Assembly (NCBI GenBank): GCA_050951545.1
Contig: JBMNJG010000009.1
Coordinates: forward strand, 1 to 64,000
Origin: Limnochordia bacterium
GTDB lineage: Bacteria > Bacillota > Limnochordia > DTU080
DNA: 64,000 nt
Direction of reading: 5' to 3'
This document shows positions 12,292 to 27,014 of the stretch, piece after piece; the first letter of the stretch is position 1; every line of letters starts with the position of its first letter. The notes beneath the pieces are model-generated. The model was not told the origin of the DNA, made no database searches, and was given only the letters and a program-made list of their open reading frames with translations. Position numbers and translations under genes: made by a program.

Positions 12292-12379
12292 CATTAGGAA
12301 CGCACGGCGTGGGTGATCCGGGTAACTGCTAGGTATGAAGGTGATCAGATCAGCCTTGATCTCTCTAGCTGCTCTTTAC

Positions 12380-13118
12380 GCGACCTGGTCTCAAGAGCAA
12401 CTTAGCGCCGCCGTAGGCGACTATCACCGAGTACGGTGTTTCACTGCCTGAACTCCAGATTGGTCGTTACAGCCACACTGCGATGCTCGTAGCAGCTCGC
12501 GACTACGTTGAACAGAAGCTCAGCACCATGCCGATGTAGTGGCACAAAACCCCCACTCATCCAGGACATAGAAATCGCATTTCCCCGGCTCTGGATGAAT
12601 TGGCCGAGTGTTCTTCTGGCGCTGTGGCAGCGCGATGTCGTCCCAACAGTAATCCTGTAGCGTCTTGCCACACGCGAAAGCCGCTCGTTTGAGAGCCCTA
12701 CGGACGCGATTCCCTTCTCGCACTCGCAACTCCTCGGCGAAGAGTTCCGTAAGGTACTGCTCGTTCCCGTCGTGTGTGATCTCATTGAACACACGTGGTA
12801 CGGCATCCAGCCGACGCACCTTGCACTGCTCCCTAAGTAGTGACATGCGAAGGCATCTCCCTTCGATAGGTTGGTGATAGCCGGTTGTAGATCGTTGTGT
12901 CAGGGCTCAAGACCAGCCACTTCGCGTGGGGTGTGCTGTTCTGCTAAGGGTGATGGAATCGCGTTCTCTGGGTCGACGGCATACAGCCTTTGTGCCAGGC
13001 CTGCCCGATCGTCCTGACGCTCTGGGGGTAAGGTAGCCAAAGCACTCGCAATCTGAGCTATTGGATAGGCTTTCAGAATGTCACGTAGCAACCGAACCCC
13101 TGCAGAACGCCTGCACAT
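12380..13118 (-). pseudogene. istB: IS21-family remnant: istA 3' end and internally deleted, frameshifted istB
   Basis: IstB N-terminus (YLTELFAEELRVREGNRVRRALKRAAF..KTLQDY) jumps to the Walker B region (VLDEWGF; next frame ELLFNVVASCYEHRSVAVTTNLEF then stop); Walker A missing. Boundaries approximate. Confidence 0.8.
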
Positions 13119-13187
13119 GCAAATCAGGGAGGTATTGGACCCGGCGCGGTGCCTATAACATCTTGGCTGCCATTCTGTGCACTTTCA

Positions 13188-13347
13188 TTATGCCAAACAC
13201 ACCCCCGTGCGGGGGCGACCTTCAATAGAACCGCAGCTCAGAGGCTGCGGAAACGTTTCAATCCACGCCCCCGTGTGGGGGGCGACTGCGAGGCAAGCGA
13301 GCCCAGCATGCCACCGAAGGTGTTTCAATCCACGCCCCCGTGCGGGG
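13188..13347 (-). CRISPR. Trailer block of the type I-C array: degenerate terminal repeat, one near-perfect repeat, one IS-truncated repeat, 2 spacers
   Basis: 13188-13219 degenerate; 13255-13286 has one substitution; 13322-13347 holds the first 26 nt of the + strand repeat and then IS sequence. Confidence 0.9.
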
Positions 13348-15121
13348 CTGGTCCTTACCCTCACTGGACACCGTGGCTCATGGTGAGCCGGCGAATATGC
13401 TGAACAACTCAACTGCTTCCACTGCGTTGTCCAAGTGCTGCAACCCGCGCCAAAGAACCTGGGTGCCGGGCATGCCGTCGCTTTTTCGCCCCAAGTGTCC
13501 GCCTAGCTGCCCAACCATCCGAACCGCTTCAGCCATGGTAGGTGGTTTGTCCGGTGGACGAGGGTTCTTGGTGACAAGGCAGCACAGCGTTTTCCATTCA
13601 ACGTCAGTAAAGAATGAAGTGCAAGCAACATCGGGGGTGTCCCGGCCCAGCATGGTCAGGTGGTAGATCCTCCAGGCCACGACCATGTCCAGTCCAATAC
13701 AGGCTTGCAGGCTATCAGCTGTGCCGAGTTGCCGATTGCGGATACGACAGCCACTCTTCAGCGTACGATGGTATGCTTCAATACCCCAGCGGCCAGCGTA
13801 CCATTCCACTCTCGTTTTGGCATCCTCCGCAGTCTCGACCGGGACCGTCGTGAGTAGCATCCATTCTAGCGGTACTGTCGGTTGCGCAGTATCGCTTTCC
13901 GGAGGGAGCTCTGAAAGGCGGACTGCCCATAGCGCTATAGGTGGTCCCTTGGCATCGCGTTTAGGGGGACGCACCTCTACCTTGGAAAAACGCAGCTCAA
14001 CCCAAGTATCGCGAGCTTTTCGAGAGCCAGCATGTGGAATGTGAATTCTGAGCTTCGCGGCCACGTCGCGGGCAGCCAAAAAATCCCACAGGTAGCTTTG
14101 TTCTTCTTCATCAACTTTGCGAAGACGCGCCCTATCAGACCTGATCAGAAGCCCAGGCCCGAGAGGATCCTTGGTTGCCTCGACAAGCAATTCATAGATG
14201 TCAGATTCACGATCACCGACACTGACGATCAGTGTATCGGGACACAGCTTCTGTATCTCGGCCACCTTGCGATAACTGTGCAGCCACTTGATACTTTCCT
14301 TTTCCTCGATAGGTAGCCGCTGTCTTTTCATGCTTTTGCCAGTTTCCTGTGGGTCGCGTACCCAACATTGCGCATCGAGAATTCCTAACGGCGTTCCCTC
14401 TGGCGTAAAAGCCAAGGTATCGTGCAAGAGCATACCGAGACCCTCACCGCCGGAACCTGTGGGACCAAGCCCCTCCGTCATAGGATGCGTATTATAATCG
14501 AGAGTGGTGGTATCCTGAGGGGCGAGCACCACGGGATGCTCTTTGATACGCTCAATTGTGGCCTCCGTATGAGGCGTGAGTATTACGTCCATGCTAACCG
14601 CCTTATTGTTGAAGAATCGATATGCCGCCATCGTGCGAGCCTTCGAACCGCATGCCTCTGGTATGTTCGCCTCGGAGTTATTGTAGAAATCCTGAGCGAG
14701 TATGTACAGACGCTGCTTCAGCCTTTCGTCAAAGAAACGAACGGTGCCAAACTCCTCTTCAGCCCAGTGAGCTGGCTCTTCAGGCCGAGGTAGCTCACAT
14801 AGTTGCACTGGTGGAGCCTGACACAGACTTTGCCGCCACTCAGCGCAAAGAGGATAGAGAAAGATTCGCTTCCGAACACCGTCTCGCCTTCCTGCTGTGA
14901 CGCCGACTTCCTCCCAGTTGGCCGCTTTGTAGCATGTGCCTAAGAAATGAGAAGGATCGACAAAGCTCTCTACCAATAACGGGCGAACGGCGTAGCGCTC
15001 GTCCCAATCGTCCGCCAGCCGAGCAAGCGCCAAGGATAGCACGTGCGAGGCCAGATTGGGTACTTCCACCGAGGGTGCGATCAAGAAGCGAGCATTGCAG
15101 ACAACCTGTGGCAAATTCGCT
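13348..15121 (-). mobile_element. IS4-family (IS50/Tn5-like) element with DUF4338-like N-terminal domain, 5'-truncated, inside a CRISPR repeat
   Basis: Right end TGAGGGTAAGGACCAG (minus strand) abuts the cut repeat at 13347/13348; the other junction (15121/15122) is mid-coding and has no matching inverted repeat. Confidence 0.85.
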
Positions 15122-17279
<2,158 letters not shown>

Positions 17280-17461
17280 AGCATGCCACCCAAAACCCGT
17301 TGTTATCGATGTTTCTGGGTGTGTTCTCGGGAACCCCTCACTCATCTCACCTCTTCAGATAGCCGCCTGTCTCACGCGATCATCGAAAACACGTTGCTGA
17401 GGCCCTTTTAGCGCTTCTGCGAACCCCCCTGGGGTTCCCTGATAGCTTAGGGTTCGCAACG
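17280..17461 (-). promoter_or_regulatory. CRISPR leader
   Basis: Non-coding 182 bp between the cas2 stop and the first repeat, containing inverted TGCGAACCC...GGGTTCGCA motifs typical of I-C leaders. Confidence 0.8.
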
Positions 17462-17752
17462 CTAGACCACGAGCGGGCCCTGTGGGTCATACGATGGCTT
17501 GGCGCCCACGTGCTCGACCCGCTTCTTCCAATTGCTTCCAAGGAAGTAAAAACGAAGGCTATCCTGATCTTTGTCAACCGCACACTCCAGGCGATTCCGA
17601 AGTACCGCCCATTGCGCTGGATCCACCAAACACTCGAATACCGAGTTCTGCACACGCTGCCCATAGTTCTCGCAAATTCTGGCTACCTTCCGAAGTCTTC
17701 TCTGCCCGTCAGGATTTTGCGTGGATACATCATAGGTGACGAGCACAAGCAC
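17462..17752 (-). CDS. cas2: CRISPR-associated endonuclease Cas2
   Basis: 96 aa; VLVTYDV, RRLRKVARICENYGQRVQNSVFEC, DSLRFYFLG. Confidence 0.97.
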   Translation of the reverse strand: MLVLVTYDVSTQNPDGQRRLRKVARICENYGQRVQNSVFECLVDPAQWAVLRNRLECAVDKDQDSLRFYFLGSNWKKRVEHVGAKPSYDPQGPLVV

Positions 17753-17756
17753 CCCT

Positions 17757-18788
17757 TCACCTCCATAGGAATGCAGGGTATGCGTCCAGATCACCACGCA
17801 GATAGCGAGCCATCAGCATCGCTTGAGCATGCGGCAAAAGCCCGAGCGCGATCTTTTCGTTTAGGAACGGGTGTTTGATCTCATCCTGTTTCCGCGCCTG
17901 GTAGGCGACGATAACTACCTTGCGTGTCTTATCATCCATGTATACGGCCCCACTTTCAGCCCGGTCAAAGCCCGAGGGGTCCACCTGCTGGCGGTTGATA
18001 AGTGACAACACAAGTCGGTCGCCGAGCAAAGGGCGCATCTCTTCCATAAGGTCGAGTGCGAGACCTGCCCTCCCGGGTCGATCGCGATGCAGAAAGCCGA
18101 CTGCAGGGTCCAGACCTACACCCTCAAGCGCAGAAGCCACGTCATGCGCAAGCAAAGTGTACACAAACGAGAGCAGCGAATTCACGTTATCCATGGGTGG
18201 CCTACGACTGCGCTGGCGAAAGTAGAAAGACTCCTTGTGATTAATGATCAGATGATCGAACACACCAAAGTATGCCCGAGCCGCTTCGCCCTCTGCTCCT
18301 CGTATACTGTCGAGTCCCGCGCTGGGATCCAGGCCCTTTAGCACACGTGCCAACCGCTCTGCAGCGCCTTGAACAGCTGATCTACCCTGCATGTCTGGCC
18401 GATCACGGGTAGCCCTAAGCAAAACGACGCGACTGTTGACGATCTTTGCCCCCACCACACTCCAGGCCATTTGAGCTGCTTCCACGGGATCATCTGCTCT
18501 TCGGTACTGCTCCCTCCGCAGCAACACGTTGCCGGAAACTGGGCCATTCACCCGCGCCAGAAAGCGGCCGTTGATAGTCAGAAAGGAAAGAGCTACTTGT
18601 CGCTCGCCGCAAAGGCCCATAAGAGCAGGGCTGCAACCGACACGACCAAAACAGACTATTCCGTCCAAGGTGTGTATGGGTACCCGAAGAACGTCCTTCT
18701 GATCCACCCGTACCGCAACCGTTTCGCCATCGCGGGCGAGGTAACCCCCCTGAGTTGTGACGTACAAAGTGTTCAGCAGTCGCTTCAT
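17757..18788 (-). CDS. cas1: Type I-C Cas1
   Basis: 343 aa; MKRLLNTLYVTTQG, RGAEGEAARAYF, GFLHRDRPGRAGLALDLMEE. Confidence 0.98.
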   Translation of the reverse strand: MKRLLNTLYVTTQGGYLARDGETVAVRVDQKDVLRVPIHTLDGIVCFGRVGCSPALMGLCGERQVALSFLTINGRFLARVNGPVSGNVLLRREQYRRADDPVEAAQMAWSVVGAKIVNSRVVLLRATRDRPDMQGRSAVQGAAERLARVLKGLDPSAGLDSIRGAEGEAARAYFGVFDHLIINHKESFYFRQRSRRPPMDNVNSLLSFVYTLLAHDVASALEGVGLDPAVGFLHRDRPGRAGLALDLMEEMRPLLGDRLVLSLINRQQVDPSGFDRAESGAVYMDDKTRKVVIVAYQARKQDEIKHPFLNEKIALGLLPHAQAMLMARYLRGDLDAYPAFLWR

Positions 18789-19481
18789 TCAGTTCTCAAC
18801 ATCCTCCCCCCAAGTGTCACGGAAGCCAGCAGCGAGGTACCCAGCTGCGCTTCTATTACCCTGGGTAACTTTCGGCATACATAGGTCTATCAGGGAACAA
18901 CTCTTGCATTTCGGCCCATACTGTGCTGCTGGTGTAGTACCCGATGAGAACAGAACGTGCAACTGCTGGATGAGCTCTTTGGTCGTCGCACGCAAGCCTT
19001 CACTGAACGGAACGTTCTCGCGGCGCCTGGAGGCCCCATGGAATATCGCTCCTTCACTAACCTCAACCCCAAGCATCTCTTCGATACACAGAGCTTGACA
19101 GCAGAGCTGCACCCTGTGCGAATCATCACTGCGAGGAAGACCTCGTTTGTACTCCACCGGGAACGGTTTCCACCAACCCGCGTAAGTGCCTAATGACACG
19201 CCACCATCCCATTCAGACCCCTCGCAACGGAGGAATTCGACGGCATCCGCCTGACCAACAACACCGAGCCGGAGCGACCGCAGGGGCAACGCGCGGACAG
19301 TTATCACCTCCCCGCGCGTGTCCCGACCCAGGTCATGTACCCTGTCATGTAACAGACTACCCTCAGCGGTCAGGAGGTTTTCCTCCCATTGTCGCTCTAG
19401 ATGGATTAACGCGCAGCGACGAGGACAGAACGCAAGATGCTGAATAGCTGATATGGGAAGCAGTTCATCTTCTGCGAACAT
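18789..19481 (-). CDS. cas4: Cas4
   Basis: ISAIQHLAFCPR, GQADAVEF, PVEYKRG, QLCCQA and CKSCSLIDLC Fe-S cysteines. Confidence 0.96.
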   Translation of the reverse strand: MFAEDELLPISAIQHLAFCPRRCALIHLERQWEENLLTAEGSLLHDRVHDLGRDTRGEVITVRALPLRSLRLGVVGQADAVEFLRCEGSEWDGGVSLGTYAGWWKPFPVEYKRGLPRSDDSHRVQLCCQALCIEEMLGVEVSEGAIFHGASRRRENVPFSEGLRATTKELIQQLHVLFSSGTTPAAQYGPKCKSCSLIDLCMPKVTQGNRSAAGYLAAGFRDTWGEDVEN

Positions 19482-19504
19482 GGGCCTTGTCCATCGCCTC
19501 CGCA

Positions 19505-20515
19505 CTAATCCACCACGATCTCTGCTGGAGCCTTATCCCATGTAATGCCTATAGTGCCATCCTCTATCCGTCCAGCAAAACCCACTTGTACGCCGTGCGG
19601 TAGCCTACTCCCATGGAACGTCACCTCGTAGTCCGAGTAAGCCCGCGGCACTACTACGCCCTCCCGCCTGCGAACCTCGACAAGGTCAAACAGCTGATGC
19701 GAAGCCGCACAGCCAAGTTTCGCCTGTCGGGCCCTCTGCGCGCTATCGCTATCTGTGCCCACATGCTTGAAGACGAAGACTGGCTCACGCATCGTCATGA
19801 TACCCTTGCTGGCCGAGCGATCGTGTTCGTACATCTGCAACAAAGCCTCCCAGAAAAGTGATAGATCCTCTTCCGTGAAGCCTGTATCGGCGGCTAGATT
19901 AGCGCTAATGAAGCCTTTCCCCATGTACAAACCATATGGAATGAGAGTCTTCCGTCCCATGGTCCGTAGCTTGTCTTCGGGCTGTTCGGCTTCCCAAGCA
20001 GCGTATTCCTCACTCGTGGTCACTTTCGTCGGACTATCCGCTACCGCTACCCTCGTGATAGATACATCCAAAGGAAGTACAGGATCCACAGATCGAGCAA
20101 ATGTCATCTGAACCGGGCCCCGCACTTGTCCAGCGTTGCCCCCTGTACTCATTACTGCTCCAAAGGTTCGTACATCATAGAAGTGCCTGCAGATCCAGGC
20201 ACGCGCCCTACTGACCTCATCAACGTTCGCCCCCTTTTTGGGGACCCGGCCATTGGCCTCTTCGTGCGCCAGGGCAATTGTCCTGTTGATGTTAGTTGCA
20301 TGCTGAATCAGTATGGCGTGTGGCGACGCGTTGTCGCCATATGCCTGCACATAGTTGCGAATGCGCCTCTTCAAGGCTACATCAGACACCCAGCCATGCA
20401 TCGTCTCGGGATCCACCCGTGGCGCGTTCCCGGCATCAGGGTCACCGTTGGGATTTCCATTCTCGCAATCAAACAGAAACAGGAACTCGAAACGGTTAGC
20501 AATGATCTCACTCAC
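19505..20515 (-). CDS. cas7: Type I-C Cas7 (Csd2)
   Basis: [38 protein letters not shown] and EHDRSASKG motifs. Confidence 0.97.
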
Positions 20516-22274
20516 TTACCTCAGCCTCCTCTGGCGCGGCCGCGTTACGCTTGGTTCTCAAGTCAGCCATCTGCTGATAATAGCCTAGAGCAAATACGCT
20601 CTGTTGCTCCAGCGAAAGAGCTGTAGGCAACTCATCACCTATAGCACTCCAAATGCTTGACAGATGGCCTTCATACCAATAAGCAAGGCCTTTCTCCATC
20701 TTTCCGAGGTGGAACTGACTGGTGCGCGTGAGTCTGCCTAGCACCAGTGCAGGCGTGCTACTTGCTGCAGCGTAGTAACGCTGAACTACCCCGGCCCCCA
20801 CATCACCGAGAGCCGCCCTCTGAACTGCGGCCAGAACGGCCATTAGCCTGCCGCAGTGATAGGCTGCATCTGAATGCGCCTCGTTTAGATGCGTTTGCAG
20901 CTCAGTCATTGTCATCCCTTCCTTCCGCCGTGCCCATCGCAGTTGGTACGCCTTCATCAGGGCCACTCTATAGCAGTTGGATCGACCACCCCTAAGGAGT
21001 TCCGAATGCCATTGCTGAAGAGCCCCAGCCATAGCTGACGGCGGGATCATCTCATTGCAAACTGCAGCCCGCCACATCATTGCCGCTAACGGAGCGGAGC
21101 AATCCTCCAACCGCCTTGCACTAGCTGCTAGCAGAGTGCTGATACGTGGTTCTGGCAGCAGACCATTGCCATCGGGAGCGACCAGCGCCAGATCCGTGAA
21201 CCACGCCTGAACGTTTCCCAACAGATCCTCAAAGGGGCCCTCCATCCAATCACGGATCATTGTCCGACCCGCCGCTCCTGATACCGTAATGGCATAATAA
21301 CGGTTTCCGGCGAGGTTTGGGCGCTCTCCAGTGCGTATCGCCCGCAGCAGCTGATCGGCTCGCCGCCCTGCGTCTAGCTCCACGAGTTCCTCATCTTCCG
21401 TGAGCCAAGACAGAGGGTCTTCCTCATCGCTCAAGCTGTCTTTGTACCAATGCGCGACCTTGGCTCCGACCAGAATCCGAGAGTTGTGACGCAAAAGGTG
21501 ATTCAGCCCCGCTCGGTAGGCCGCTGCCGAGGCCTCAGATACCGCTGCATTGGCAGACTGCTTCAGGCCATAGGAGCAATAGGCATCTTTGTCGAAGCCG
21601 ATCAGTGAACTCCCCATCGTGCTGCCGCCAACACTTGCCAACCCCTGGATCTTCGGATGCGTCGCCACTGGGATCACCAGATCCCCGGTGACGAAACAGC
21701 GCATTCGCCCCGTTGATCCTTTAGCCTTCGTTGCACCGCCGGCTGAAGCCGCCAGCTGCTCGCGAAACTCCCGCCACCAGTCATGCCAAGCAGATGATTC
21801 GACTGGAAACCTGCCAGCAATCTGGATAGTAACGTTATCGGTGGATGTGCACTTCTGCTCCTCCAGGTCCTTGCGAATGGCCTCCAATTGCTGCCCGTCG
21901 CCTAGGCACTTTGCAGCGGCACGCAGTTCAGGCATCACTTCACTTGCCTGTCGCAAGAGGCCAAGAAAGAAATCATGCTTTGCCCGTTCTTTGGCGCCAG
22001 GATTCTTCGAAACACAGGCCACGACATCCGCTTTTTCAATCAGAAACTGGCTTCGTACCTCACTCCCTCTTACGAGTTCGGGTTGACTTAGTTCCGGGCA
22101 CACGGGGAACTCACGTCCTGGATCGTTCTTCTGAGATGCATCGCCCAATCGAATCGAGTGCAAGTACCGCCCATCGCCATCGCACACAATTGCCCACTTG
22201 GCATACCGACGGCTGAACCCGGGCTCTGAATCGACTCCATGCCTGCGGGCATAGTCGCGCAGTAGGCTCAGCAC
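20508..22274 (-). CDS. cas8c: Type I-C Cas8c (Csd1)
   Basis: [39 protein letters not shown] and FALGYYQQ motifs; operon position. Confidence 0.95.
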
Positions 22275-22278
22275 TGAG

Positions 22279-23001
22279 TCACCGCCTTTCCCCCTTTAGT
22301 ACTTGTGAACTCTCATATCTGGGTACTAGCATGACGCCCTCATTCACTCTCGCCTGGAACAGGCTGATGCACGGTTCGCTGTCACTATCCCCTGGGAGCG
22401 AAAGATCGAACACATCATAGAGCATCAGGCCCAGGTCTGCGCTCCAGGGCACGGTTGGTGAGCGCTCCACCCCCTCATCCAGCAACTCGAAGAAGGCTGG
22501 GAACTCTCGACAGCCGAAATACGGATGGTGGAAGCACTGACCCCGACTCGCCCGTCGACGAAACTGAGACTCCAAGGCCTGTATACGATGAGCGTGACCC
22601 GGCCATGGCTGAATGTGAGCATGTAGCCGATAGTGCACGTTCTTCAATGCAACCGTCTGGCGCTGGGTGCGTTGTTCTGGACTATCTGCCAATAGCGGAC
22701 TTACTGACTTCGTACCACGCATCCAACTCCTGACATTGGCCGATGAGATCCTGCCTATGACTTCATTGCGCCTCAGAGATATATAGCTCGGCATCGAGAG
22801 GACCTCTATCTTCGTGACCTGCCAACGAAACTGCGCCATGACCGGGTCCCGATGTGGCTTGCAGTAAATCGCGTCGAAAATCCCACGAGCAGCCGACGGC
22901 GTGATCACAGGGTAAGAGAACCTTTCGACTTTGAGCTCAGGACGAGAAAAACATGCGAGCTCACCCCACACCTCAAGGATCTGATTCCTGGGTTCCATCA
23001 T
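22279..23001 (-). CDS. cas5: Type I-C Cas5 (Cas5c/d)
   Basis: VWGELACFSRPELKVERFSYPVITPSAARGIFDAI and GQCFHHPYFGCREFPA motifs. Confidence 0.97.
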   Translation of the reverse strand: MMEPRNQILEVWGELACFSRPELKVERFSYPVITPSAARGIFDAIYCKPHRDPVMAQFRWQVTKIEVLSMPSYISLRRNEVIGRISSANVRSWMRGTKSVSPLLADSPEQRTQRQTVALKNVHYRLHAHIQPWPGHAHRIQALESQFRRRASRGQCFHHPYFGCREFPAFFELLDEGVERSPTVPWSADLGLMLYDVFDLSLPGDSDSEPCISLFQARVNEGVMLVPRYESSQVLKGERR

Positions 23002-23015
23002 ACCCAGCCCCCCCC

Positions 23016-24087
23016 TTAGGCAATAAGACAATCCATGGACTCTGGCGGGCAGAGCCCACTGACATCACTGTAATGAGCCTCATTTAAGTAGATAAACCAA
23101 TCATCTGCGATAGTCCGCCCCGCGCGGATGCGCACTGACTCAAGCCAATCCCTTAGTGGATCATCACGCTGCGGGCGAAACACGCTGATTGCATGTGCAC
23201 GGGCCTTGGTGATCCAACTGGCAGTCAGGCCAGTATCCCGAACCTCCGCCGCCAAAGCGTGATAGGCATCAAGATCGTACGGTACGAGTACATTGATCGC
23301 ATCGGTATCGATGAGACGGTATAAACGTGATACATCAGGGAAGTGCTGGAGTCTACCCGCCTCAAGGATCTCCTTGCACAGAGTTTCCGGCGCGGCTAGG
23401 CCATACAGCATCATATAGTAGCGCCTGTACAGCTCTTCATCATTGATATCAAGCGCCTCGCGACCCAGTTCGCGAAACAAGGCCTCTGCCACTTTTGCAG
23501 CGCGTTCATACGCACCATCTGGGTACAACTGCCCCGGATCGTCCGGTACAAAAACCTGGACTCGACCTTCCACTTGTCTCCCATTACGGTTGCAGCGGCC
23601 AGCAGCCTGGGCAATACTCTCTAATGGTCCCCAAGCCCTGATGACGCTGGGGAAATCCACGTCAACCCCCGCCTCAACACATTGGGTGGAAATCAGCCTG
23701 CATGGCTTCCTATCCCGGAGTCGCCTTCGCACTTCATCTAGGACTCTATCCCTATGGGCTGGGCACATGTTGGTCGACAGATGGAAAACCGCACTGCTGT
23801 CTGCGAGCAAATTCGTGAGATGAAGCGCGTGTCGCTTCAGGTTCACGATGCATAGCACCTGCGCAGACCCGGCAACTTTCCCCGCTAACTCATCCCAAGA
23901 TAGGCGGGCCCCCGGTTCTGGCCAGGCAACTGCGGTGCGTCGAGCACGTGCAAACAGGTTAAGCCCTTTGGGAACGATCTCAACAGGCTGCCAACCATGG
24001 CCAAGGGCCTTGGATATCACTGGGTGAAGATGGTCAAAGGCGGGCTGTGTCGCAGTCGAGAAAACGACGCTGGCCCCATATCGTTCT
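23016..24087 (-). pseudogene. cas3: cas3 3' fragment (helicase motifs III-VI and C-terminal domain)
   Basis: YGASVVFSTATQPAF, LCIVN, STQCVEAGVDVDF and QAAGRCNRNG; continues the 5' fragment in frame once the IS is removed. Confidence 0.95.
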
Positions 24088-25782
24088 GTGTGTGTAAGAT
24101 GTTTACGGGTGGAGCCTGAGGGATCCGAGTAGGGCTAGTCTCTGGCTGCGGCCACGTGAGTCTGGGTTGAAGGATGCTCATGGATCGCGGGCAGTCTGGA
24201 ATACTTGGTGGAAAATAAAGGGAACGAGAAGCCCGATCTCCAAAGGAGATTTGAACGGAGGACTTCTCGTTATGGATAAGATTCGTGGCTGCCTTGGTTT
24301 CTCCTTTTCGGAGATTGAGACGCTGTTATTGGCTAGGTTGCGGGAGTTGCTTGCCGAAGGGCTGGAGACGATGCTGCAGCGTCTAGATGACTCTCTGTTC
24401 ACGATGCGGGACTCGGAGCGCTTCAAGGTCAAGAAGCACGAGGAGCGCACGGTAGAAACGGCGATAGGCCAGAGTGTGCGCTTTCGCCGGCGGCAGTACT
24501 TTGACTGCAAGAAGAACAAGTACGTGTTCCTGCTGGATGAGGCGCTCAGCCTAGAGCCCTACAAGCAGATCAGCCCGCTGTTGGCAGAAACGCTCCTGGA
24601 GATGGCCGTTAACACCTCGGCCTACCGGAAGGCGGCTGATAGCCTGGAGGCGATTCAGGGGCATCGGGTCGTCAGCCACGAGACGGTGCGTCAGAGGGTC
24701 CTAGAGGCTGGTGAGCGTCTACAGGATGCCCAGGATGCAGAACTGGCCGATCCATGCGGAAAGGGTCGTGTGCCCGTCCTGTTCCTTGAGGTAGACGGGT
24801 TGTGGGTTCACCTTCAGCAGCAGCAGCGGAAGTCAACTGAAGAGAAGATGCTGACGGTGCATGAGGGTTGGCAGCCACGTTACTCGGAGGGAAAGTCTGG
24901 TGGCTACGAACTGCTAGAGAAACGGCAGTACAGAAGCCAAAGTGGGCAGTCAGAAGGCTTCTGGGAAAAGGCCAGCCGGTTTGTCTATAGCCACTATGAC
25001 ATTGACGATGACACGGTTGTGGTGATCAACGGTGACCGTGCGAACTGGATCCGTAAAGGGACGGAGTACTTCCCGAAGGCTTTGTACCAGATCGATCGAT
25101 TCCACTTGAAGCGAGATATACTTAGGCTGTTCCGAGCGCACTCACAAGAGCTTTCTGAGATCATGGGAGCGCTCGAAGACGAAGAGGATCTCACTGGTGG
25201 TGCGTTCTTGGCCCGCCTGGAGCAGGGGTTGAAGAAGCTTGGCGGAAAAGGTCGTCGGGAATGTGAAGCGTTACTCAAGGACCTGACGAGCATGCCCGAG
25301 GCGACCGTAGACTACCGGCATCGCTTGGCGGCTCAAGGAGTAGACACGACGAACATGCGCGGTCTTGGAGCAGCGGAGAGCCAGGCAGATGGCTTTGCCG
25401 ACCGTGTGAAGGGACGTGGACGCAGCTGGAGCCCTACAGGCCTGTCGGCGATGATGGAGCTGCTATGTTGGTGGAAAACAGATCGTCTGCACGAGGTAAC
25501 CGCCCGCCTTCGGGATTGGCTACGCAGCGTTGACGAAAAGCTGGATCTGGGTTCAAGCCTAGCACTGGAGGCAGTGAATGACGTTCTAGCAGCCGTGGCA
25601 GGAGGCACTTCCACGCTTACGGCCAGCGTGCCGATCGCCGGGTACGGCAAGACGGGCTCAGGCGGCATGTCCTGTCTCATGAATCGTATCGTTGGGGGTG
25701 GCTTAGCTTCGGTAGCAAGCTAGGCAACACAAAAACTGCATACGGGGATCGGGTGCGTCGCCCGTAACCTCTTGACACAGAC
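24088..25782 (+). mobile_element. ISLre2-family insertion sequence, 1695 bp, with 9-bp target-site duplication
   Basis: TSD TATCGTTCT at 24079-24087 and 25783-25791; imperfect 22-bp terminal inverted repeats GTGTGTGTAAGATGTTTACGGG / GTCTGTGTCAAGAGGTTACGGG (16/22 ungapped). Confidence 0.93.
24272..25723 (+). CDS. ISLre2-family (UPF0236) transposase
   Basis: LFLEVDG, VINGDRANWI, IDRFHL and GAAES..F.DRVKGRGRSWS motifs; ATG after GGAGG. Confidence 0.9.
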   Translation: MDKIRGCLGFSFSEIETLLLARLRELLAEGLETMLQRLDDSLFTMRDSERFKVKKHEERTVETAIGQSVRFRRRQYFDCKKNKYVFLLDEALSLEPYKQISPLLAETLLEMAVNTSAYRKAADSLEAIQGHRVVSHETVRQRVLEAGERLQDAQDAELADPCGKGRVPVLFLEVDGLWVHLQQQQRKSTEEKMLTVHEGWQPRYSEGKSGGYELLEKRQYRSQSGQSEGFWEKASRFVYSHYDIDDDTVVVINGDRANWIRKGTEYFPKALYQIDRFHLKRDILRLFRAHSQELSEIMGALEDEEDLTGGAFLARLEQGLKKLGGKGRRECEALLKDLTSMPEATVDYRHRLAAQGVDTTNMRGLGAAESQADGFADRVKGRGRSWSPTGLSAMMELLCWWKTDRLHEVTARLRDWLRSVDEKLDLGSSLALEAVNDVLAAVAGGTSTLTASVPIAGYGKTGSGGMSCLMNRIVGGGLASVAS

Positions 25783-27014
25783 TATCGTTCTGACAGCCTT
25801 GACAGTGTACCCAGGGTTGGCACGATGAGGCGGAGCGGGAGTGTCTGAACCTCATCAAACAGGATCACGCTCCTAGCAAGTCTGTGCAGCTTACGGCAGG
25901 CTGCGGGCCTATTCGCGAACAGCGACTCCAGGAACTGCACGCTGGTGGTGACCACAATGGGGGCATCCCAGTTCTCTGCAAGCAACCGCTCTTGGTTCAT
26001 CGCTGCGTCTTTCGCAGTGAGGCTACCCTCTACTCTGCCGAGACCAGCCAGCGAGTGGTGCTCAAGCACGTACCTCCGCAACCAGAGAGAACCACCCATT
26101 TCCCTGAATGCCTCACGGTAGGCCTTCACAGACTGGTCGATGATCGAGAGATAGGGGATAACCGCGACGACGCGCCTCAGATTGTGCTGCGCCGCGTGCT
26201 TAAGGGCAAAGGCCATCATGGACAGTGTTTTGCCAGCCCCTGTTGGGGCCGTCAGAGTGAATAACCCGGGACCTTGATTCGCTGCGTCCAGACAAGATGT
26301 CAACAGATCGGCCCGCAAGGCATCTACAGATTGGGCCGCCGAGGAGCCTTGGGCCAACCTCCCAATATGCGTGAGCAGGGCAGCAAGGGCTCTAGATGGC
26401 TCAAGGCTCGGCCCACGCTGACGGTAGTTCTTCGCGTCGGGCGTCAGTGCCTGAAAGTGAGCCTCAGTCTCAAGAAAGTCAGCATCCACCAAAGCAGAGA
26501 AGAGCATTCGCACGTCAAGCATATCCGCCAGGTTCCTTCTAGGTGACCATTCATATATGGACCTCTCAAGAGTGGGCATCTTGAGCCCATCAGACGCAAA
26601 CTCTGACATGAGCGCCTCCACATCTGGATCGGACAGCCGCAAGCCAAGAGGGTGATTCTTTGCGAGCCACCGAGGGTCAAGCTCCCGTAAAGCACTTGCA
26701 GAGGCCTGCTGCAAACCGATGTGATGCCCCTGAATCGCTAGTGCAGCAGCGATGCCTTCCTTCTTAAGTAGCTGCAAAGCAACCCAGGCACCCGTCGACC
26801 AATGATCCACCTTGCTGGCCTTTCCCTTCAGCCTTTCAACAAACGGCGGCCCGTACTTCCCAAAGTCATGGCTGAGACCTGCTGCTCGGGCCTCCTGGCC
26901 AGCATCAAAGACTGATGCAAACTCGGCGGCGAGCTCAGCGACACTGGTCAGATGCTCGGCCAAGCGATCCTGCCGCCCTGAAAGGCTAGGCGAATGGGCG
27001 AGCGCTCCGCTCAA
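25782..27014 (-). pseudogene. cas3: cas3 5' fragment (HD nuclease plus helicase motifs I-II)
   Basis: LAEHL, SHDFGK, GHHIGL, LVDADF, APTGAGKT and FDEVQ; ends at a TAG formed at the IS junction. Confidence 0.95.

Follow-up and report, generated by a model that had tools for sequence, protein, structure and literature searches.

Between positions 13189 and 27014, the window (hereinafter the whole 64,000-nt stretch of Limnochordia DNA analyzed in this work) carries a CRISPR-Cas locus that is assigned from its sequence to type I-C and predicted to be transcribed on the minus strand. The locus comprises the following features.

~13189–13219, minus strand: degenerate terminal (trailer-end) I-C repeat, read directly from the sequence
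13220–13254, minus strand: oldest spacer, 35 nt, corresponding to positions 1–35 of a 36-nt I-G repeat
13255–13286, minus strand: full I-C repeat with one substitution (GTGTGG for the consensus GTGCGG, + strand)
13287–13321, minus strand: second-oldest spacer, 35 nt
13322–13346, minus strand: one part of the IS-split I-C repeat
13347–15121, minus strand: IS4-family element within the repeat, with a 6-bp duplication, GCGGGG (NF033590 IS4 family transposase, 407 bits)
15122–15133, minus strand: other part of the IS-split repeat
15134–17279, minus strand: main I-C array block, 32 exact repeats of 32 nt with 32 spacers, a three-unit stretch being duplicated
17280–17461, minus strand: leader region between cas2 and the first repeat, assigned by position only
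17462–17797, minus strand: cas2 (PF09827, 90.5 bits)
17757–18788, minus strand: cas1c (TIGR03640 Cas1c, 509.5 bits)
18789–19505, minus strand: cas4 (TIGR00372 Cas4, 124 bits)
19505–20515, minus strand: cas7c (TIGR02589, above cut-off)
20508–22274, minus strand: cas8c (TIGR01863, above cut-off)
22279–23031, minus strand: cas5c (TIGR01876, above cut-off)
23016–27014, minus strand: cas3, split into a C-terminal part (23016–24020) and an N-terminal HD and helicase part (25782–27014)
~24083–25803: ISLre2-family element splitting cas3, transposase on the plus strand (24167–25723)

The CRISPR array spans ~13189–17279 and is built from a 32-nt repeat (+ strand, GTTTCAATCCACGCCCCCGTGCGGGGGGCGAC) present as 33 exact copies, an IS-split copy and, at the low-coordinate end, a degenerate copy. 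Three observations indicate that reading proceeds on the minus strand: the I-C operon lies upstream on that strand, the repeat ends with ATTGAAAC in this direction and the degenerate repeat sits at the low-coordinate end; this polarity makes the spacer at 13220–13254 the oldest. The degenerate terminal repeat retains its first ~20 bases in the transcript direction, including the stem-loop, and has lost the ATTGAAAC tail, scoring 16 against the upstream repeat in a flank comparison. Spacers are 33–36 nt long, and 14 of the 31 measured between exact repeats are 35 nt. Within the array, a run of about three repeat-spacer units occurs twice (15635–15805 and 15837–16007, 98% identity). Matches of the main array block in phage and plasmid records are repeat-driven and come from other I-C arrays, including ones carried by Nitratidesulfovibrio vulgaris plasmids; since no protospacers of the block were found in these records, the PAM was taken from the literature. 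No match was found for the second-oldest spacer (13287–13321).

The locus resembles the ordinary I-C (Dvulg) system described for Legionella pneumophila in its 32-nt repeat ending with ATTGAAAC, its 33–36-nt spacers with 35 nt as the commonest length, and its gene order cas3-cas5-cas8c-cas7-cas4-cas1-cas2 (PMC5602111), and differs from it in the unusual origin of one protospacer and in its inactivation by two IS insertions. The IS4-family element, whose boundaries were set from copies on contigs C7 (98.6%) and C5 (99.5%), places 1.8 kb of IS sequence between the last two I-C spacers and the leader. The ISLre2-family element within cas3 has other host copies that are 99–100% identical, and over both elements the further genome copies share 98.6–100% identity. 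These insertions have made a fossil of the oldest spacer, which one element severs from the leader while the other breaks cas3. An IstB-like (IS21 helper) gene fragment lies just past the array trailer (12441–12806), so that the locus is bordered and interrupted by IS material of three families. A partial IS4 copy also occupies a contig end elsewhere in the assembly (C5:1–824), ~600 bp from an I-E array.

On the minus strand the oldest spacer reads GTTTCCGCAGCCTCTGAGCTGCGGTTCTATTGAAG. It abuts the full I-C repeat on the leader side and the degenerate terminal repeat on the trailer side, its 35 nt are the commonest spacer length in the array, and the I-C gene set upstream is complete and includes an adaptation module, all as in a genuine I-C spacer. 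The sequence-only reading had described a GTTT start, a 7-bp stem and an ATTGAAG end filling this spacer from edge to edge, and sequence, coordinates and fold bear the description out: the spacer is laid out as 4 + 7 + 6 + 7 + 4 + 7 nt, namely GTTT, a 7-bp stem with a 6-nt loop, a 4-nt linker and ATTGAAG. The stem CCGCAGC/GCTGCGG is predicted to form at –13.1 kcal/mol (z = –2.98), with 2 of 200 shuffles folding equally well. Immediately beyond the spacer comes the G that opens the terminal I-C repeat; G is also the rarer of the bases seen at position 36 in the I-G repeat family introduced below.

We searched for relatives of the spacer with a relaxed pattern in which the GTTT start, both stem arms and the ATTGAA(G) end were fixed (25 bases) and the loop and linker were left free. 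In the 3.64-Mb host assembly this pattern matches once, at the spacer itself, with no match in the reversed control or in 400 other sampled genomes of the phylum, which excludes a chance resemblance.

The spacer is not an assembly artefact. At least half of the sampled words of 13120–13420 are contained in 20 runs from 17 studies of bioreactor, anaerobic digester, sludge, landfill and similar metagenomes, and four of these runs, each from a different study, were compared in detail; all four have a contig that crosses the spacer (X1, 13052–14616; X4, 13059–13346; X16, 13121–13333; X19, 13059–13284). Within 13220–13254 these contigs show no differences, although one of the runs could be the sample from which the window itself derives; the nearest variant is a C>T change at 13216, in the degenerate terminal repeat, in runs X1 and X16. 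The contigs of X1 and X4 also span the IS junction, indicating that the IS4-family insertion is common to these runs. A same-locus comparison of 481 trailer bases with five genomes of the family gave no match.

Scanning with the relaxed pattern recovered 89 loci, three in species-representative genomes and 86 in stretches of metagenome contigs. The scan of species-representative genomes used a 7-nt loop only, one base longer than that of the spacer, and found a 7-nt-loop subfamily (L002–L004). In 62 of the 89 loci the motif recurs at least five times at ~72-nt spacing, which identifies them as CRISPR arrays. Repeat length is 36 nt with a 6-nt loop and 37 nt with a 7-nt loop; 35 sequence variants occur, and the arrays contain 1008 unique spacers, mostly of 35–38 nt. 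Type I-G genes (Cas3g, Csx17, Csb1, Csb2, fused Cas4/Cas1 and Cas2) adjoin the array in 18 of the 89 loci; by tblastn, effector genes are present at seven and fused Cas4/Cas1 and/or Cas2 at 16, while most of the remaining loci are short contigs consisting largely of array. In L002, genes for Cas3g, Csx17 (TIGR04113, 591 bits), Csb1 and Csb2 (TIGR02165, 157.7 bits) lie directly upstream of the leader and array, and L012 carries a full I-G operon that includes fused Cas4g/Cas1g (NF049935, 831.6 bits) and Cas2. The earlier assignment of the spacer to the I-G type thus gains firm ground, the same repeat family forming arrays beside the genes of that system.

The closest family repeats are identical to the spacer at 31 of 35 positions (L011, a 1150-nt contig without flanking genes) and 30 of 35 positions (L005), against 17, 14 and 5 of 35 for the host's own three repeat types. 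Published I-G (Csb, formerly I-U) repeats of Thioalkalivibrio sulfidiphilus are described as 36-nt units with a 7-bp stem, a 4-nt linker after which Csb2 cuts, and an 8-nt 3′ handle (bioRxiv 10.1101/2022.08.08.503147), and those of Bifidobacterium lactis as 36 bp long (PMC12915315). On both anatomy and similarity, the spacer is classed as belonging to the type I-G repeat family. It departs from I-G repeats in being a single 35-nt copy set between I-C repeats as a spacer, in a genome without I-G genes, and in its linker TTCT, which none of the 35 recovered variants shares. With one copy in the host, in place of tandem units accompanied by I-G cas genes in the same genome, the spacer is a copy of an I-G repeat and not a working member of an I-G array.

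By blastn-short, the 35-mer occurs only once in the host assembly (16 contigs, 3.64 Mb, 93.9% complete), and none of the arrays detected by a k-mer scan has an I-G-type repeat. The scan recovered the I-C array, arrays with a 30-nt repeat on C13 (C13:88672–101298; the repeat ends with ATTGAAAC) and three large arrays with a 28-nt I-E-like repeat, which together hold ~200 repeats (C5:1408–3262, C6:153893–159096 and C16:152958–158092). Profile searches for Csx17 and Csb2 found nothing in the host and gave no signal in the control genomes either; because the controls were silent, the host was also searched by tblastn with the I-G proteins of L002, and the best match had E = 0.029. The I-G repeat family was not found in 40 relatives at up to three mismatches. 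As far as sampled, therefore, the I-G repeat looks foreign to the host lineage. Comparisons in other directions are likewise unproductive. The 1008 unique I-G spacers give only 17–18-nt exact matches in the host genome and one 24/26 match at two host sites, which we judge uninformative; the other I-C spacers give only chance matches of 12–18 nt to the host genome and the I-G loci, with none beyond 16 nt in the host genome; and the trailer (12300–13219) has no matches in the I-G loci.

We also looked for the donor among mobile elements. The exact 35-mer has no match in viral contigs or metagenome contigs, and blastn found no match in phage records and three partial matches in plasmid records (E = 4), all within ordinary genes and none full-length. 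The relaxed pattern has no match in viral contigs. A looser viral pattern returned a single match (L091) with neither the GTTT start nor the ATTGAAG end, which looks like chance.

Solitary copies of the family do exist (L023:1824–1859, L074:7–42 and L088:347–382; L026:781–816 and L044:3134–3169; L025:152–187; L036:163–197; L037:568–602; L065:2312–2347). Those with enough flanking sequence adjoin ordinary chromosomal genes, encoding ribosomal protein S1, an S49 peptidase, pyruvate dehydrogenase E1 and a luciferase-like oxidoreductase. The proposal in the sequence-only reading that the I-C system captured a foreign repeat stands as the best-supported origin, the host having no I-G array or genes, whereas the mobile element named there as donor finds no counterpart: there are no real viral, phage or plasmid matches, and the solitary repeats with enough flank sit beside ordinary chromosomal genes. 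Flanking direct repeats like those of the window are seen in none of ten testable single-copy loci, an eleventh lying too near a contig end, and a crude test for repeat-like spacers among the 1008 I-G spacers yielded one weak case, present in L021 and L078.

The edge-to-edge fit of the spacer to the I-G repeat can be understood from the lengths involved. In the Legionella pneumophila I-C study, ~90% of acquisitions use a TTC PAM and spacers are 33–37 nt long, 35 nt being the commonest (PMC5602111). Since I-C spacers of 33–36 nt are nearly as long as the 36-nt I-G repeat, only one coincidence is needed, namely a PAM directly upstream of repeat position 1; for a protospacer that starts there, the 3′ edge falls automatically at the repeat end. 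Such protospacers exist, as TTC precedes 38 of the 1542 I-G family repeats. Of the 4681 TTC-adjacent protospacers inside I-G arrays, 38 (0.8%) begin at repeat position 1 in sense orientation, a further 20 are their antisense counterparts, and 3012 derive from two TTC sites within each repeat. With an array as donor, ordinary acquisition would be expected to yield such an exact fit, though seldom; a lone TTC-preceded repeat as donor would make it likelier. To our knowledge, no I-G integration or crRNA-processing step would release a fragment with exactly these ends. A special mechanism for the origin of the spacer is neither needed nor supported.

We consider it probable that the oldest spacer is a genuine I-C spacer whose sequence was taken from foreign DNA bearing an I-G repeat. 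Cas1c, Cas2 and Cas4 would have cut a 35-nt piece from such DNA, with the PAM (TTC in studied I-C systems) directly upstream of I-G repeat position 1, and integrated it next to the leader, from where it would have shifted to the trailer end as newer spacers joined. The donor was most likely foreign and may have been an I-G array, a mini-array or a solitary repeat of another organism or element. While the system was intact, the crRNA may have recognized every copy of the repeat in incoming DNA, with cutting expected at copies that have a usable PAM upstream. Several points temper our confidence in the capture: the source of the 35-mer is absent from the collections searched, the TTCT linker has no counterpart among the 35 variants, an array donor would make the exact fit a rare event, the host assembly is 93.9% complete, and this is a single case.

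An alternative places the donor in the host's own lineage, as an I-G array since lost or left unassembled, with self-targeting autoimmunity selecting the IS hits in cas3 and the array. We regard this as unlikely. Both cas3 and the array are indeed disrupted by IS elements, and IS insertion into cas genes is a described route of CRISPR inactivation (PMC10359306). Moreover, arrays are often left unassembled, and the assembly is 93.9% complete in 16 contigs. Against these points, the assembly holds no I-G array or gene, searches of 40 relatives and 400 sampled genomes of the phylum did not find the repeat family, and matches of the other I-C spacers to the host genome do not exceed 16 nt. The timing also fits poorly: the spacer was acquired long before the two IS elements inserted, and these are still 98.6–100% identical to other copies in the genome. 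The suggestion in the sequence-only reading that autoimmunity lies behind the broken cas3 and the IS that cuts off the leader is therefore disfavored: the assembly holds no target, and the near-identity of the IS copies elsewhere in the genome fits general IS activity. Its second host array as the source of the repeat fares no better, the 35-mer having no second copy to draw on.

It is less probable still, indeed very unlikely, that the embedded I-G repeat was kept for a function of its own, as a decoy RNA that would tie up the Csb2/Cascade of an incoming I-G system in the manner of an RNA anti-CRISPR, as a second processing site or as the point where array transcription terminates. The I-C transcript would contain the repeat in sense, with the predicted family hairpin, solitary phage and plasmid repeats that inhibit CRISPR systems are known (PMC10651486), and the spacer is unchanged in four runs; yet the sense orientation is a one-in-two outcome, the host encodes no I-G protein and the block lies 1.8 kb of IS away from the leader. 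Trailer-end spacers are conserved in general, so the invariance of this one is no sign of selection. With neither Csb2 nor any other I-G gene in the genome, the earlier idea of a hybrid array cut by two nucleases also lacks support. For a hairpin followed by a U-rich tail acting as terminator, the terminator scan flagged one terminator-like site (stem 13250–13231, tail TTCTATTGAA), against a mean of 0.7 expected in shuffles. As for the remaining possibility, that the I-G resemblance is chance or the spacer an assembly artefact, the single match of the 25 fixed bases in the host with none in 400 other genomes or in reversed controls, the 31/35 identity to a real repeat and the spacer-crossing contigs of four runs leave it a negligible probability. 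On the preferred reading of capture from foreign DNA, the spacer is an ordinary I-C spacer of unusual but well-identified origin in a locus that is no longer functional.

Spacers directed at CRISPR-Cas components have precedents. 'Anti-CRISPR' arrays of E. coli contain spacers against I-F cas genes in just those cases where the genes themselves are missing (Touchon and Rocha 2010, PMC2886076), and archaeal spacers are described that match CRISPR-related genes and array flanks, with a tabulation of spacers matching CRISPR-related sequences in Table S7 of that work (PMC3285040). Like these cases, the window spacer is a memory in a resident array of a CRISPR-Cas locus absent from the genome; unlike them, it matches the repeat itself, in place of cas genes or array flanks, and shows no sign of selection. 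It thereby adds a repeat-derived case to the known theme of CRISPR-against-CRISPR memory. In the literature searched, mostly the main texts of open-access papers, nothing describes a spacer that reproduces the entire repeat of a different subtype.

The spacer also recalls RNA anti-CRISPRs (Racr), lone array-mimicking repeats on phages and plasmids, in being a CRISPR repeat outside its own array and in the sense direction of the transcript (PMC10651486). Racr repeats are described on mobile elements, with their own promoter and acting on the host's matching system; the window copy, in contrast, is a spacer of a chromosomal array in a host without I-G, and no promoter-like site was found in 12800–13500. 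The main text of the Racr paper contains no mention of the I-G subtype (PMC10651486).

A further question is whether the spacer was useful as an 'anti-array' memory, kept at the trailer end so that its guide could pair with every incoming I-G repeat. We hold this to be rather doubtful. If true, the host would have shut out elements bringing an I-G system, or an I-G repeat decoy, into the anaerobic-reactor community; the targets would be an incoming I-G array, a mini-array or a repeat-mimicking RNA gene, and CRISPR-versus-CRISPR conflict would extend from cas genes to the repeats themselves. A single guide would base-pair with all repeats of a rival array, which may represent a repeat-level form of the conflict already described for cas genes.

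The usual interpretation of spacers is that they record phages and plasmids; one that spans a whole repeat of another CRISPR subtype suggests that arrays or repeat-bearing DNA can also be sampled as targets. For pipelines that discard repeat-resembling spacers as artefacts, it matters that the one described here is real and present in contigs of four runs. As one fossil spacer in an inactivated locus, it is a well-documented curiosity and a search template, and not a demonstrated mechanism.

Several members of the I-G family show features of their own. The solitary copies in L023 and L088 are bracketed by a short inverted repeat, GCTATG ... CATAGC, and solitary I-G repeats could be regulatory crRNA-like elements. 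In a Binatia MAG (L004:3830–4125), a two-repeat mini-array of the family follows a leader-like A+T-rich stretch resembling the leader of L002; no I-G genes lie within 8 kb, and its neighbors are a HicB antitoxin and an MmeI-like restriction enzyme. In a contig labelled Enterobacteriaceae (L003:35–987), two repeat copies, one of them degenerate, stand 916 nt apart and bracket a PIN-domain gene with a small upstream ORF. In L012 (6145–7635) and L028 (5126–6613), a 496-aa ORF without an NCBIfam match lies between csb2 and cas4/cas1, within an I-G operon that is otherwise complete.
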